From the IMG/VR virus record IMGVR_UViG_3300014835_000073: 64,000 nucleotides of DNA; one strand, 5' to 3'. A program made the position numbers and the translations under genes. This stretch comes from a virus. Under the pieces are notes generated by a model that was given only the letters and a program-made list of their open reading frames with translations, ran no database searches and was not told the DNA's origin. Shown here piece after piece: positions 24,411 to 36,188 of this stretch (position 1 is the first letter of the stretch; every line of letters starts with the position of its first letter).

Positions 24411-25795
24411 TATAAATCTGCCTGTGGTTTTAATATTTTTGATAAACTTTGACGTTGCATTTCGCGATGGTTGTAAAACGTAATCGTCCATTGACCATTT
24501 TCCGGGATAGTTTGTTCATCCGGTAAATTAATTTTAAGTTTATTCGTGTTGTAAATCTCGATTATATTATCATAATCGGAAATGACATAATCAAGCACCA
24601 TTGGGCCTAATTTCAACACAATATATAATGCATCCACTACGATCATATTTGTTTCAATAATTGAATCTCCCTTAGTTAGGAAGATTAAATCGCTGCCCAT
24701 TGCTTCAACGTATGTAAAATTGGTATTATTGATAAAGCCTGTTTTAAGAGTATCTCTAGTATCAGTGTTGGTCATAGTTGTCCTAGTGACATCTTCTACA
24801 TTAACCCAGCTAATGTCATCAAACCTGAATAATCTATTTGGTATAAAATCAGTTCGTAAAAAGAAATCATCCTTTCCAGCTGACATGGGAAATTGTATTC
24901 CATGACCAAAATCATAACCATTGTCTGGAAAACCATCTCCCAATAGATATCCAGTATAACCGGATCTAACAGGTCTTCCGTTGTTTTCACTGGCATGGTA
25001 TGAAGCATTGCTAGCATCAAGTGTTGTCATATCTGTTGTATTGATAACTGGTAATCCGGTTAGTGGATCTACTGCTAATGTGTAAAATTGTCTAGTTTCG
25101 TAACCGCTTTTGGGTGCCTCAGCTTCGGCTTGGTTCAAAATAGCATCATTAATTTCTAATTCTTTATTTCTAGTGCTTAGCAATTCACGTAATGTTACGT
25201 CGGTTGCTTCTCCAGCTGGTTGATCAAGGATATCGGAAAATTGTTGACTATCCGTTACTTTTTTAATTTTTAATCTATATAAATGTGGATACCAAGTAGC
25301 AGAAAAACCTTCACTTGCTCTACCTACATCTTCTATGACATAATATCTAGGCAAACTTATGTCAAAATCATTAAGCGCAAAATCATCTTTTAGGTGAGGT
25401 AGTTCTATAACATCACCGCTTATTGGTTTTCTGCCTATATATGTGATAAAATCATTGATATGAACTGACATGTATAATGTATCATTATCTATAAATAGTC
25501 CAAACTGACTTAAGTTAAAATCAACATTTTGTACATTATAAATTCCGCGAATCTTATATATTTCTTGATCATATTTTCTATCACGGTTTTCTAAAAATAG
25601 TAAATCTTGGATGTTTGTTTCCCTGACCGCATCGTATACCGGTTGGTCGGCAGTGCCATCTGTCATTAATTTTGGTCCTAGAAATTTATGAATGTATACA
25701 TCAGTTCCGCCAACTTGAAACATTCTAGATATGTTTCTGTCAATAAATCGATAATTGTTTCCTTTCTCTGGCTGGTATAGACTTAATCTGGGCAT
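24410..25795 (-). CDS. neck / head-closure protein (T4 gp14-like)
   Basis: GGTDVYIHKFLG…DLLFLENRDRKYD…LSQFGLF…GRK…GDVIELPHL; divergent from the gp13-like gene. Confidence 0.65.
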   Translation of the reverse strand: MPRLSLYQPEKGNNYRFIDRNISRMFQVGGTDVYIHKFLGPKLMTDGTADQPVYDAVRETNIQDLLFLENRDRKYDQEIYKIRGIYNVQNVDFNLSQFGLFIDNDTLYMSVHINDFITYIGRKPISGDVIELPHLKDDFALNDFDISLPRYYVIEDVGRASEGFSATWYPHLYRLKIKKVTDSQQFSDILDQPAGEATDVTLRELLSTRNKELEINDAILNQAEAEAPKSGYETRQFYTLAVDPLTGLPVINTTDMTTLDASNASYHASENNGRPVRSGYTGYLLGDGFPDNGYDFGHGIQFPMSAGKDDFFLRTDFIPNRLFRFDDISWVNVEDVTRTTMTNTDTRDTLKTGFINNTNFTYVEAMGSDLIFLTKGDSIIETNMIVVDALYIVLKLGPMVLDYVISDYDNIIEIYNTNKLKINLPDEQTIPENGQWTITFYNHREMQRQSLSKILKPQADL

Positions 25796-26385
25796 TTGTT
25801 AATTCCTGTAGTGTTATGATATTTATCAATTTTTTGCTTACATTTATTAAAATGATATCGTGTCATGTTGCTACCTTTGCCAGCTATCTCGCAGAATGGA
25901 CATGTTATTGTTGCATAGACTCTTTCTTTGGCCGCCTTATACATCCTTAACTTAGTTTCTGCTGATTTAGGTTTAGACATTTTAGCTTTGGTTTTTGCTG
26001 ATATGTTTGGTTGTGCAGCAGACATTCTTGCACGGGATTCTGCTGATGGTATAATTCCGGGACTTCCTTTTATTCCACGATCAGCTAATCCATTTTCTAA
26101 TATTAAATTAGCCCATTCAGTGGAATCAACTATATTATTTTCTTTTGAAAAAAGTTAAGGCGTGTTAAGTTATTAATTTTTTATCGGTATATGGTTCAGA
26201 TAACCAAATAGTTTCCACAAACACTATTCCGTGCTTATTGATATGTTTTTTCCAATATGTTCCTGGAACCTTTGTATTTGATAGGATCTTTTGATTTAGT
26301 CTTGTCGAAGTATTTTAGTTTTATAACTGCGTGTTGTTTTATATAAAACTATGTTGGGGGTAGTGGTATTATCATAAATATTCAT
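25783..26385 (-). pseudogene. decayed GIY-YIG (Seg-like) homing endonuclease with NUMOD3-type tail
   Basis: Stitching frames gives PT*FYIKQH…LKYFDKT…DPIKYKGS/GTYWKKHINKHG…VETIWLSEPY…T*…ENNIVDSTEWANLILENGL, then KMSKPKSAETKLRM…TCPFC…NMTRYHFNKCK; at least two stops and several frameshifts. Confidence 0.85.
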
Positions 26386-26449
26386 AGCGTATTCCATATA
26401 CGCTAGTGTAGATGGGAATTACAGTTCCGTGAACTACATTCTTATTTAT
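26383..26449 (-). promoter_or_regulatory. late promoter plus conserved double-hairpin leader of the GIY-YIG gene
   Basis: ATAAATA-AGA-ATGTAGTTCACGGAA-CTGTAA-TTCC-CATCTACA, then hairpin TAGCGTA/TACGCTA overlapping the ATG; same core as 33946-34015. Confidence 0.7.
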
Positions 26450-26478
26450 CAGATAAATATAGTTGGAGAACTAATAAT

Positions 26479-27249
26479 ATGTCTGAAAGCACATCACTGA
26501 TAGAACGAAATAAAGTATTTGAATATGTAAGAGCTATGTTGGGCGACGGTATGATTTCAATCGATTTAGATCCAATACATTATGAAACCGCATTAGACAG
26601 GGCATTGACTCGGTATCGGCAACGTAGCTCAAATGCAGTTGAGGAAAGTTATTGTTTTATAGAATTGACACAAGACCAGAATGAATATCGATTACCTGAT
26701 GAAATCATTGAGGTCCAGAGTATATTTCGTCGCTCAATTGGTTCACGATCTGGAATGGGTGCCGGTGGTACATTGTTTGAACCATTTAACTTGGCATATA
26801 CCAATACTTACCTGATGAGTGGTAGTATGATGGGTGGATTGGCAACTTATGAAATGTTTGCCGGGTATCAAAAATTAGTTGGTCGGATGTTTGGTAGTTA
26901 TATCGAATTTAAATGGAAACCACAAAGTCACATCCTTACTATTCTCCAACGTCCATTTGCTCAAGGTGAACAAATATTACTAAAAACGCATAATTATCGT
27001 CCAGATTTTGTGTTACTTACTGACATATATGCCAAGCAATGGTTGCGTGATTATACATTGGCGACATGTAAAATTATGCTCGGTGAAGCTAGAAGTTTAT
27101 TTGCTAGTATCGCTGGTCCGACTGGTGGTGGCATTACCCTAAATGGTGCTGAGATGAAAACTTCTGGTAAGGAAGATTTATTGGCACTCGATAAAGAATT
27201 GGAATCATATGTCTCGGGCGGAACGCCTGTGTCATTTATTATTGGTTGA
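26479..27249 (+). CDS. neck protein (T4 gp13-like)
   Basis: LGDGMISIDLD…ALDRALTRY…W(LR)DYTLA..K.MLGEAR..F..I.GP.GG.TLNG. Confidence 0.75.
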   Translation: MSESTSLIERNKVFEYVRAMLGDGMISIDLDPIHYETALDRALTRYRQRSSNAVEESYCFIELTQDQNEYRLPDEIIEVQSIFRRSIGSRSGMGAGGTLFEPFNLAYTNTYLMSGSMMGGLATYEMFAGYQKLVGRMFGSYIEFKWKPQSHILTILQRPFAQGEQILLKTHNYRPDFVLLTDIYAKQWLRDYTLATCKIMLGEARSLFASIAGPTGGGITLNGAEMKTSGKEDLLALDKELESYVSGGTPVSFIIG

Positions 27250-33150: not shown

Positions 33151-33516
33151 ATGTCATTAAATCTTCCAATCCAGTCAGCCGATACCACTATTGATGTTAA
33201 GCAATTCTTTGATAAATTCTTTATTAATCAAATTAGTTTTCCCAGTGGGCAAATTGACGCGGTAGTTGGGTTTTTTTTAAAAAGATCATTTGATGTAGAA
33301 AGTGCCAGATCAACTGCTATTGTATTATTGAATCAAGCTAGGACAGATAATGTAAATGTTTTTGAATTACTTGATACCTTAACCGGATTAACTGATCTAC
33401 AATTAAGTCAGGTTGTGGCTCAGGTATTGAATGTATATCGAGAAAACGTTAGTTTATTGGGGTATCGAATTGCGCCATTGATTGATACCTATGAAGTTAG
33501 GAATATATTAATATGA
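33151..33516 (+). CDS. hypothetical protein
   Basis: 121-aa ORF within the structural operon. Confidence 0.6.
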   Translation: MSLNLPIQSADTTIDVKQFFDKFFINQISFPSGQIDAVVGFFLKRSFDVESARSTAIVLLNQARTDNVNVFELLDTLTGLTDLQLSQVVAQVLNVYRENVSLLGYRIAPLIDTYEVRNILI

Positions 33517-33953
33517 GTCATAAATTTGCTAGGGGTAAATTCACCCCAAAGAATCCAGGTAAGTACATTGGTACTAAGATACCGCAATATAGAAGCTCAT
33601 GGGAATTGAATTTTTGTATGTTTTGTGATACGAGCAACAGTATTCAAAAATGGGCTAGTGAAGCAATATCCATACCGTATCGTGATCCATTGACTGGTAG
33701 AAATACCGTTTATGTGCCGGACTTTTTCATTCAATATTTGGATAAGAATAATAAAATTAATACTGAATTGATAGAAATAAAACCATCCAGTCAGCAATTG
33801 TTGGAGAAGGTTGGGAAGAGTAAATTCAATCAAGCGCAGTTTATAAAAAATCAAGCAAAATGGAGTGCCGCGTCAAATTGGTGCAAACAGCAAGGTATTG
33901 TATTTAGGGTGCTAAATGAAACTGATTTGTTTATGAATGGCAAGGCTAAATAA
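33513..33953 (+). CDS. gp4: head completion nuclease (T4 gp4-like, TnsA/PD-(D/E)xK fold)
   Basis: GKFTPKNPGKY…YRSSWE…WASE…IPY…YVPDF…IEIKP…KW.AA..WC. Confidence 0.85.
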   Translation: MSHKFARGKFTPKNPGKYIGTKIPQYRSSWELNFCMFCDTSNSIQKWASEAISIPYRDPLTGRNTVYVPDFFIQYLDKNNKINTELIEIKPSSQQLLEKVGKSKFNQAQFIKNQAKWSAASNWCKQQGIVFRVLNETDLFMNGKAK

Positions 33954-34015
33954 AGATGTAGTTCACGGAATGGGGATTCCTAACTACTTTAATGTCACTG
34001 ATGACATCAACGATG
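33946..34015 (+). promoter_or_regulatory. late promoter plus conserved double-hairpin leader of the HNH gene
   Basis: CTAAATA-AAG-ATGTAGTTCACGGAA-TGGGGA-TTCC-TAACTAC, then ATGTCA-CTGA-TGACAT hairpin before ATG 34013. Confidence 0.7.
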
Positions 34016-34243
34016 ATATTTATCGATAACAAAGATACCAGATGGTATTTCAATATAATTAATAGAGCTAAACCCAGACATCTCACGGAATATTCTGAAA
34101 ACCACCATATTGTACCAAAATCACTGGGTGGAAATAACAGTAAAGAAAACCTAGTTCAGTTAACTGCCAGGGAACATTTTATATGTCATCGATTGTTGAT
34201 TAGAATGCTAGTTGGTGAAAATAAAGGAAAAATGGTATATTAA
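34013..34243 (+). pseudogene. truncated HNH homing endonuclease
   Basis: MIFIDNKDTRWY…ENHHIVPKSLGGNNSKENLVQLTAREHFICH; stops after 76 aa and is followed by an inverted repeat. Confidence 0.8.
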
Positions 34244-34378: not shown

Positions 34379-34858
34379 ATGAAGAAACTAGAAGATATAC
34401 TCAATTTACCTACCAGTCAAGTGATCATGCGTACTGCCCGTCAGAAGGTACCGCCAGTGATTATCCCTGCTACTAATTTTAGAAATGTATCAGATTTTGA
34501 TAAAATATCAGCGGCATTGCCCCCAGTGACTGGGTTAGGTGACATCAGTGATACCGAATTTGATGAATTATCACAACGGGCAACATCTGCGTATGATGAC
34601 CTCATGGATCTTGGATTAAATGTCGAGGCTAGATATTCAGCTAGGATATTTGAAGTGGCATCAAGTATGCTCAAGAATGCAATTGATGCTAAATCTGCCA
34701 AGGTAGATAAAAAACTCAAGATGATAGAATTACAACTTAAAAAACAGAAATTAGATAATGATGCTAGTTCAGATGATCGAGGCATTGACATACAAGGGGA
34801 AGGTTTTGTCGTTAGTGACCGCAATAGTCTTCTTGAAAAATTGAAAAATATGAAGTAA
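34379..34858 (+). CDS. probable terminase small subunit
   Basis: Helical protein upstream of TerL (DLMDLGLNVEARY…A..MLKNAIDAK…DRNSLLEKL); position-based call. Confidence 0.5.
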   Translation: MKKLEDILNLPTSQVIMRTARQKVPPVIIPATNFRNVSDFDKISAALPPVTGLGDISDTEFDELSQRATSAYDDLMDLGLNVEARYSARIFEVASSMLKNAIDAKSAKVDKKLKMIELQLKKQKLDNDASSDDRGIDIQGEGFVVSDRNSLLEKLKNMK

Positions 34859-35503: not shown

Positions 35504-36124
35504 ATGAATTTCGCAGCATTATATAAAAAAATAGCAAACATAGATAAAAATGTTATATTAAATGAATGTGACTGTATGGATAATACTGAACCAAAGCAAC
35601 CAGTTCAGCAAGATTCGGTTAATATGAATGTGTCAATAACTGGTCAAGGTTCAAATGGTATTCGTGATTTGATAGATATGCTACGTCATATTGAAAAAGC
35701 GCCAGACACAACTACAGAAATGCCGATTAATAGACCAGTTTCATCTGATTATAACAGCGGTGAAGTTATTGTGATTGGTGAACCTCCTATCGAATATGAT
35801 GGTGAATCTACTGATGAGCATCAATATGATAATGACGACGAATCACAATACGGTGATGTTGACAATGAGCCACACTACGGTGACATTGATGATATTCTGG
35901 TAGGTGACATGGATGAGGAACTATCTGACGATTTCGAAAATTCCGCACCTGGTAATTCTGGCCTTAAGACTTACGGAATAGGCGCAGTAGTTGCAATGGG
36001 CGATGATTTATTAAGTAAGGGTAAAGGATCTGTGAAGGTCAATGGTGGTGAAAATCCATTTGCAGTTAAAGAATCATTAGTTAGGGATTTGCGAACGTTG
36101 TACAACGAAATTAAAATTAGATAA
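35504..36124 (+). CDS. hypothetical acidic protein
   Basis: Start MNFAALY immediately after the upstream stop; Asp/Glu-rich. Confidence 0.65.
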   Translation: MNFAALYKKIANIDKNVILNECDCMDNTEPKQPVQQDSVNMNVSITGQGSNGIRDLIDMLRHIEKAPDTTTEMPINRPVSSDYNSGEVIVIGEPPIEYDGESTDEHQYDNDDESQYGDVDNEPHYGDIDDILVGDMDEELSDDFENSAPGNSGLKTYGIGAVVAMGDDLLSKGKGSVKVNGGENPFAVKESLVRDLRTLYNEIKIR

Positions 36125-36148
36125 GCATTTTTAAAAAACATCCATTCA

Positions 36149-36175
36149 AAAAGCAGTCAACAGACTGCTTTTTTT
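36149..36175 (+). terminator. intrinsic terminator
   Basis: AAAAGCAGTC-AACA-GACTGCTTTTTTT. Confidence 0.75.
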
Positions 36176-36188
36176 TGTAAATAAAAGC

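Follow-up and report, generated by a model that had tools for sequence, protein, structure and literature searches.

A conserved cassette at the 5′ end of phage homing endonuclease genes, with a predicted antisense RNA on the opposite strand

Introduction

The control that keeps free-standing homing endonucleases harmless is known only for a few genes of phage T4, each with its own hairpin. Reviews of endonuclease regulation in T4 describe gene-specific mRNA hairpins, autorepression and the antisense RNA CfrI, and no cassette shared among genes (PMC2988022, PMC2984593). For a late promoter T4 needs no more than an 8-bp box spanning −13 to −6, and late transcription proceeds on either strand (PMC2988020); in cyanomyoviruses and other distant T4-like phages the late box is NATAAATA (PMC2984593). 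Outside the homing endonucleases, the selfish element IS10/Tn10 carries two face-to-face promoters, pIN and pOUT, at the 5′ end of a nuclease-type gene. Its RNA-OUT, a folded antisense RNA of ∼70 nt, keeps ribosomes from binding the translation initiation region, to which it is complementary. Since RNA-OUT works in trans, more copies of the element mean stronger repression; the antisense promoter also faces outward from the element (PMC5006887).

Here we analyse a 64-kb stretch of viral DNA (the window), for which two copies, A and B, of a conserved structured leader had been predicted, copy B in front of an HNH gene. In our reading, to which we give about an even chance, copy B is a relic of a portable, ∼85-bp cassette that occupies the 5′ end of free-standing homing endonuclease genes and would specify an opposite-strand RNA, at once antisense to the nuclease mRNA and an outward transcript. 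The general kind of control, antisense RNA and two-way promoters on a selfish gene, is known.

Results

Copy B and its surroundings

The elements of copy B, the genes at its borders and the second copy are located as follows.

33513–33953, plus strand: gp4-like head completion gene (Pfam TnsA-like_N, E 2.9e-21); its 3′-terminal codons, the stop included, contribute to the gene-strand late box of copy B
33946–33952, plus strand: late-promoter-like box CTAAATA on the gene strand; its predicted +1, G 33958, opens stem P1
33946–34011, minus strand: core of the predicted opposite-strand transcript (P2′, one base, P1′, U-rich tail), complementary to the whole HNH 5′ UTR
33958–33987, minus strand: hairpin P1/P1′, with a 6-bp outer stem, an internal loop, a 4-bp inner stem and a variable loop
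33989–34010, minus strand: hairpin P2/P2′, 9 bp on the opposite strand in copy B
34013–34243, plus strand: 76-aa stump of an HNH homing endonuclease (Pfam HNH, 21.8 bits with the cut-off at 21.4); the C-terminal, DNA-binding two thirds are missing
34017–34023, minus strand: opposite-strand late box, ATAAATA on the minus strand, within HNH codons 2–4; predicted +1 at about 34011 (minus strand)
34379–34858, plus strand: small terminase-like gene (phrog_445/phrog_16202), right border of the insertion
26372–26451, minus strand: copy A of the cassette, before an endonuclease pseudogene and divergent from a baseplate-like gene (26479–27249)

By Pfam, gp4 of the window is a TnsA-like_N protein of the T4 gp4 type; it has 499 relatives in IMG/VR. 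Its stop codon TAA (33951–33953) is overlapped by the CTAAATA box, from which a spacer of five bases leads to P1. The outer stem of P1 joins 33958–33963 to 33982–33987 (6 bp) and the inner stem joins 33967–33970 to 33977–33980 (4 bp, or 5 bp in the computed fold); the hairpin is able to form on either strand, with one extra pair on the opposite one. On the gene strand, P2 consists of 6 bp (33992–33997 with 34002–34007) and a 4-base loop. The stems of copy B and the overlap of the promoter with the gp4 stop had been claimed in the original prediction and were found so in the sequence, as was the identical distance from promoter to stem in copies A and B (five bases each). The conserved block continues beyond what was then described, past the start codon and into a second, inverted late-promoter box.

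The reading frame behind copy B contains an HNH motif and ends after 76 aa, against 235 aa for the HNH protein encoded at the same site in a relative (locus L196), with residues 1–78 of which the stump aligns at 58% identity. A full-length HNH protein of the same family, from L049, has four NUMOD3 stretches. Translation most likely starts at ATG 34013, as in all relatives, and not at ATG 33992, which lies inside the hairpin. The cassettes of the window and of L196 share 88.7% nucleotide identity over 115 nt, against only 58% amino-acid identity for the reading frame; by this comparison the cassette is better preserved than the nuclease gene. Three of the six bases of the P2 loop have changed in the window, so that the purine-rich Shine-Dalgarno sequence kept in L196 is gone and the stem is longer. 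We regard the frame as an HNH homing endonuclease by descent that is probably not functional, and copy B, to all appearances, as a relic in which an intact cassette precedes a dead nuclease.

Copy A and the phage

Copy A, also with five bases from box to stem, matches copy B by blastn at 26448–26369 with 71% identity over 84 nt (E 7e-7). A covariance model built from relatives has exactly two matches in the window, with 86 and 71 bits (E 1e-17 and 4e-14), copy A being the 71-bit match, and an exact 30-base search gave no match in 100 shuffles. The likeness of the two copies is far beyond chance. The next match of the model in the window, a weak one of 17 bits (36115–36182, minus strand, E 0.59) that lies immediately before the large terminase gene, is probably noise.

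The endonuclease gene behind copy A (25783–26397, minus strand) is a pseudogene in three reading frames with in-frame stops. It is homologous over its full length to a 237-aa gene of the phrog_314 type, and the remaining ORF corresponds to the last 80 codons. Both nucleases of the window appear to be dead and both cassettes intact, a state that may mean that the genes decayed recently, that cassettes correct one another or that the phage benefits from them.

The large terminase of the window is ∼37% identical to the terminases of RaK2-like and cyanophage jumbo myoviruses, and gp4-like, tail-tube, UvsY-like and DNA-polymerase genes are also present; the phage is, by its gene content, an uncultured, distant member of the T4 superfamily. 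Searched against Rfam, the window gave no matches at gathering thresholds, the best one near the site (23 bits against a threshold of 70) being noise. Among the cultured phages of INPHARED there was no near match, and the distant matches cover the HNH coding part only. The record nearest to the window, an 11.9-kb fragment, is without the cassette. A literature search for the stem sequence returned unrelated primer matches only.

The cassette family

Pattern scans of IMG/VR, together with a model search of five long phage contigs, yielded 74 copies of the cassette, 69 of them distinct. The five contigs, of 259–372 kb and two of them with terminal repeats, contain 13, 13, 9, 4 and 1 cassettes. 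The stem pattern had no match in 185,579 bacterial and archaeal species, one genome each. As far as these records tell, the cassettes reside in a group of uncultured, distantly T4-like jumbo phages (lake phages). Single jumbo-phage genomes with up to 13 cassettes are represented by G002 (333 kb), G005 (360 kb, with terminal repeats) and loci L246–L275. Within one such genome the inner stem of P1 varies among copies via compensatory changes, and these differences could limit recombination or cross-talk.

All 69 distinct cassettes precede a homing endonuclease gene or the remnant of one, from at least six unrelated families; a leader in relatives without any endonuclease, the case that would have spoken against the original prediction, was not found. 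Among 63 downstream ORFs, 32 match phrog_314, 20 phrog_655 (HNH), 13 phrog_12324 (HNH_3-like) and 17 a GIY-YIG-like pair of families. Since the downstream catalytic types are unrelated, the cassette is common to several gene families. At two loci (L254:1459–1512 and L258:1459–1512, minus strand) the ATG of the cassette opens a frame of only 17 codons, the stop of which overlaps the start of the HNH gene by ATGA, an arrangement that suggests translational coupling.

The gp4/small-terminase junction

A gp4 relative was present at 80 loci, 78 of which also have a small terminase-like gene. At 73 of these 78 junctions the two genes are 12–77 nt apart, with neither nuclease nor leader between them, as expected if relatives without the HNH gene also lack the leader, the check that the original prediction had proposed. 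Two junctions (contigs of L041 and L084) hold the leader and an intact 235-aa HNH gene in a 780-nt gap, and three bear a deletion scar of 284–294 nt. The junction of the window represents a fourth state, a complete cassette followed by the first 76 HNH codons. Because the junction states pair leader and nuclease (neither at 73, both at two), the two arrived together. Empty sites, intact gene, stump and scars can be read as a full series from invasion to decay at a single site. In the scars (L172:473–766 and L173/L174:3439–3722) the start of P1, altered by two substitutions, is joined directly to the 3′ part of the HNH gene.

Two inverted late-promoter-like boxes

On the gene strand the order of elements is late box, spacer, P1, ∼5 bases, P2, ∼4 bases, ATG and TATTTA, the Shine-Dalgarno sequence being placed in the loop and 3′ arm of P2. 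The gene-strand box is ATAAATA in 61 of the 69 cassettes (CTAAATA in copy B), and the spacer between it and P1 measures five bases in 58 of 69. TATTTA, the opposite-strand box as read on the gene strand, is found at codons 2–4 in 68 of 69; in its own orientation it is ATAAATA in 54 of these 68 and NTAAATA in the remainder. It occurs in all three frames (44, 15 and 8 cassettes), at an offset of 0, 1, 2 or ∼11 bases after the ATG, whereas in 66 of 68 cassettes the gap between it and the P2′ helix is 5–7 bases, usually 6. Since all three frames are used and the spacing is set from P2′ and not from the ATG, TATTTA is best understood as a nucleotide signal, the reverse complement of a late box; a conserved N-terminal peptide was rejected as its explanation on account of the frames. 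Conservation ends sharply outside both boxes, and the position adjoining them varies independently on either side.

Both boxes have the form of a late promoter, an 8-bp A/T box (TATAAATA or NATAAATA) about one helical turn upstream of the start and no −35 element (PMC2988020, PMC2984593). The same motif precedes structural genes of the window: ATAAATA stands 12–43 nt upstream of six of them, including the sheath-like gene, the tail-tube gene and a gene for a 2944-aa virion protein. The full T4 late octamer is depleted in the window, with 7 occurrences on the two strands together where shuffles predict 14; of these 7, three fall in non-coding DNA, two of them 39–43 nt upstream of structural genes. 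No gp55 was found among the ten window ORFs scanned.

The geometry of T4 late boxes would place the start of the nuclease mRNA at the first base of P1 and the start of the opposite-strand RNA one base before P2′. The TATTTA box six bases from the opposite-strand helix, together with the strand asymmetry of wobble pairs described below, leads us to view the cassette as a face-to-face pair of late promoters, both predicted by motif and both expected to fire.

The strand that folds

In the alignment of 69 cassettes (19 pairs), the cells that are not Watson-Crick comprise 142 wobbles of the opposite strand, 4 of the gene strand and 3 others, although three fixed positions and related sequences supply many or most of them and the independent events are far fewer than 142. 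All four gene-strand wobbles are at loop-closing pairs. Both P1 stems show many compensatory changes; the apparent near-invariance of P1 is an artefact of retrieval by exact pattern, and the model search of whole contigs reveals free covariation. In the internal loop of P1, the middle base of the three-base side faces a single base, and on the gene strand the two are A.C in 31 cassettes, A-T in 18, G-C in 20 and G.T in none, so that only on the opposite strand is this pair always formed.

This alignment had been fitted to a model from the same family. A structure-free check, in which 30 cassettes were aligned with MAFFT and the alignment was compared with its reverse complement, gave the same picture. 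One pair of the 8-bp P2 helix reads A.C in every gene-strand copy (29 of 29) and hence G.U on the other strand; at a second pair, an alternation of U-A and C.A on the gene strand corresponds to U-A and U.G on the other; and two-sided changes occur at five pairs. In the same alignment, 98.6% of cells are paired in the outer five pairs of P2′ on the opposite strand, against 80.2% in the full 8-bp P2 of the gene strand. Diverged P2 variants with long spacers have the same strand asymmetry.

The opposite strand is the more stable one in 31 of 38 cassettes (Wilcoxon p 1e-5). For copy B, the core of the opposite strand has a minimum free energy of −17.3 kcal/mol (z −4.5, none of 200 shuffles as good), compared with −15.1 kcal/mol (z −2.7) for the same span of the gene strand. 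Pairing, wobbles and stability all give the opposite strand a conserved, stable fold of its own, and we conclude from the alignments that the conserved fold lies on the strand opposite the nuclease gene. What the original prediction had called a conserved structured leader of the HNH gene is indeed conserved, structured and tied to endonucleases; its placement of the fold in the leader of the HNH mRNA is not supported.

Neighbouring genes

About three quarters of the cassettes (47 of 63) have a divergent upstream neighbour, and these divergent neighbours are of 43 unrelated kinds, all ordinary phage genes. In 31 of 51 cases the nuclease gene runs backwards between two co-directional phage genes; in 10 of 51, copy B included, the cassette is co-directional with both neighbours. 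After P1′ follows a tail with a mean of 7.5 U in 12 nt. Directly behind it, at least 13 of 38 divergent neighbours have a sigma-70-like −35/−10 pair, 11 have a late box only, and 7–8 begin 14–28 nt past the cassette without a promoter motif of their own. As these promoter-less neighbours require read-through of the opposite-strand transcript, P1′ would not be a full terminator everywhere.

At many loci, for example L040:11299–11360, L009:907–964, L029:7907–7969 and L266:1584–1645, the U-rich tail passes into more T's and a near-consensus sigma-70 −35/−10 pair for the divergent neighbour, a layout that resembles PeSL terminator-promoter units. At L034:10029–10051 and L153:3906–3928, a baseplate-like gene without a late box of its own starts 23 nt past the cassette, and the homologue in the window does have one (26453). 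Late transcription of this gene in L034 and L153 may thus depend on the box inside the endonuclease gene, if that box is a promoter.

Alternative explanations

The cassette could act as a gene-strand leader, with the fold at work in the nuclease mRNA: P1 would be a 5′-terminal stabilising hairpin, P2 would half-hide the Shine-Dalgarno sequence, and a helix between the gene-strand box and TATTTA would close read-through transcripts, which would confine translation of the nuclease to transcripts from its own late promoter. Late-box geometry (PMC2988020) puts the predicted +1 on the base that opens P1 in 58 of 69 cassettes, a purine-rich Shine-Dalgarno sequence lies in the loop and 3′ arm of P2, the P2 stem covaries, and T4 offers precedents in I-TevI, segB, soc and e (PMC2988022). 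The box-TATTTA helix forms with a probability above 0.9 in 8 of the 38 read-through models, among them the intact relative of copy B, but with one close to 0 in about 20 of the 38 cassettes; copy B is predicted to lack it, it shows no covariation at the flanking position, and RNAalifold does not predict it on the gene strand. As the main mechanism, this long-range helix was rejected for want of covariation, its restriction to a minority of cassettes and its absence from the predictions for copy B. Against the leader also stand the wobble asymmetry, which favours the other strand, and the P2 pair that is A.C in every gene-strand copy. On the gene strand P2 has little stability (−1 to −5 kcal/mol) and, lying downstream of the late start, would be present in all transcripts, late ones losing the box-TATTTA helix only; an I-TevI-type hairpin that sequesters the ribosome-binding site and has a late promoter inside it is not what we find. 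A leader of this kind is compatible with the explanation we prefer, yet does not account for what is conserved, and we think it quite unlikely to be the function of the cassette.

The opposite-strand fold might instead work without a promoter of its own, as a PeSL-like terminator or insulator: phage transcripts crossing in antisense direction would be stopped or attenuated at P2′/P1′ and the U-rich tail, before the promoter of the neighbour. The 31 backward insertions would suit it, as would the sigma-70-like pairs behind the tail, often with further T runs, and the PeSLs of T4-like phages, a stem-loop plus an early promoter, have proven terminator activity (PMC2839356). It leaves unexplained, however, why TATTTA is invariant, independent of frame and fixed at six bases from P2′. 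A real terminator would silence the 7–8 promoter-less neighbours, and the stems are A+U-rich, a terminator scan came back empty, the early promoter falls outside the conserved block and the co-directional cassettes do not fit; we consider this reading unlikely. More improbable still is a module that acts as DNA only, whether a recombination handle or a shared ancestral 5′ end for swapping promoters among unrelated nucleases, with inverted repeats that have no role in RNA. Such a module would agree with the sharp ends of the conserved block at two inverted boxes, with its occurrence before unrelated ORF families with different junction frames and in several copies per genome, and with the shuffling mediated by PeSL cassettes (PMC2839356, PMC4122927). 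Plain DNA homology predicts neither freely varying loops on stems that change by compensatory pairs, nor mismatches that are nearly all of the G.U type in the RNA of one strand. A small protein encoded across the cassette, on either strand, was rejected by eye, the loop lengths being out of frame and an opposite-strand ATG present in some variants only.

Discussion

The explanation we prefer is an opposite-strand RNA, and the conserved fold most likely yields an RNA antisense to the ribosome-binding region of the nuclease gene. The left box would start the nuclease mRNA exactly at the foot of P1. The right box, over codons 2–4 and on the other strand, would start an RNA one base before P2′, with its +1 just 5′ of the complement of the start codon; this predicted promoter overlaps the translation initiation region in silico, and the transcript would span the 5′ UTR including the Shine-Dalgarno sequence. 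It would pass P2′, the loop of which in intact relatives is the complement of the Shine-Dalgarno sequence, then P1′, and run into the U-rich tail. It is the fold of this RNA, and not the one of the nuclease leader, that selection would preserve. Being complementary to the entire 5′ UTR, the RNA is expected to pair with the nuclease mRNA, which would block ribosome binding, lead to cleavage or both, and a potentially harmful enzyme would be held at a low level, as RNA-OUT does with the IS10 transposase. Antisense repression is the simplest function to propose, since the layout matches that of RNA-OUT against RNA-IN in IS10. With both promoters late, the regulatory logic would be one of ratio and not of timing. 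All steps of this function are predictions. In copy B itself the working nuclease to be regulated is no longer there.

The same transcript points outward and probably also feeds or attenuates expression of the neighbouring gene. The inverted box may serve as an outward promoter, by analogy with pOUT and with the promoters embedded in the seg and mob genes of T4. The consensus terminator scan called nothing at P1′, and the A+U-rich stem with its internal loop makes a discrete small RNA less than assured; the product may be mainly a short antisense RNA, the leader of a late mRNA of the neighbour, or both.

A further-reaching version, possible but on the doubtful side, holds that a single portable module of the pIN/pOUT type is common to the six or more unrelated nuclease families, with antisense repression that acts genome-wide and depends on copy number, and with an outward promoter that captures transcription of the neighbour. 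Homing endonucleases would then be subject to 'multicopy inhibition', with up to 13 cassettes per genome, and a phage whose neighbouring gene has been taken over by the outward late promoter could not easily lose the insert. Dependence of the neighbour and multicopy repression would also explain why both cassettes of the window have outlived their nucleases.

If the cassette is a mobile means of control shared among these genes, regulation itself becomes a transferable part of selfish genes, IS10-type antisense control has arisen in lytic phages, and the cassette is a compact natural two-way late-promoter unit. For annotation, it is a sequence tag for endonuclease insertions in jumbo-phage metagenomes, marking the true start codon of the nuclease genes and flagging dead copies.

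Among described systems, the control of I-TevI, I-TevII, I-TevIII, segB and mobE of Aeh1 resembles the cassette in its late promoter directly upstream and its hairpin touching the Shine-Dalgarno sequence, and the common purpose would be nuclease expression that is low and late (PMC2988022). In T4 the inhibitory hairpin is on the mRNA, with the late promoter inside it so that late transcripts escape, and hairpins are gene-specific (PMC2988022); the cassette differs in a fold that is kept on the other strand, in a further late box of inverted orientation and in being shared among genes. CfrI of cyanophage S-PM2 (Millard et al. 2010, as described in PMC2984593) is likewise an antisense RNA opposite a homing endonuclease gene and co-expressed with it. 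In that description it measures ∼225 nt, links the endonuclease gene to psbA and belongs to a single locus, whereas the cassette is repeated, portable and confined to the 5′ UTR.

The PeSL cassettes of T4-like phages are similar in size (∼100 bp) and are also repeated, conserved and built from a promoter and a stem-loop; like the cassette they are found beside accessory genes, recur many times within a genome and are probable recombination hot spots (PMC2839356, PMC4122927). PeSLs combine a sigma-70 early promoter with G/C-rich terminator stems and lie next to ORFans of any kind (PMC2839356, PMC4122927). The cassette has two late boxes and A+U-rich stems, includes the Shine-Dalgarno sequence and start codon and is found only with endonuclease genes (69 of 69); sigma-70-like pairs accompany it at only 13 of 38 divergent neighbours, outside the conserved block. 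The promoters embedded in the seg and mob genes of T4, such as those of gene 32 within segG, show that a promoter within an endonuclease coding region can serve the adjacent phage gene and make loss of the endonuclease costly (PMC2988022). Those are displaced host promoters, co-directional with the endonuclease (PMC2988022), whereas the box of the cassette is mobile and points the other way.

The IS10 pIN-pOUT system parallels the proposed arrangement: a selfish element has two promoters that face each other where its nuclease-type gene begins, and a folded antisense RNA covers the translation initiation region (PMC5006887). The cassette as predicted here differs from it in having T4-type late boxes and belonging to homing endonucleases of lytic phages, in an overlap that takes in the whole 5′ UTR (∼66 nt) with two hairpins, and in being common to at least six unrelated gene families.
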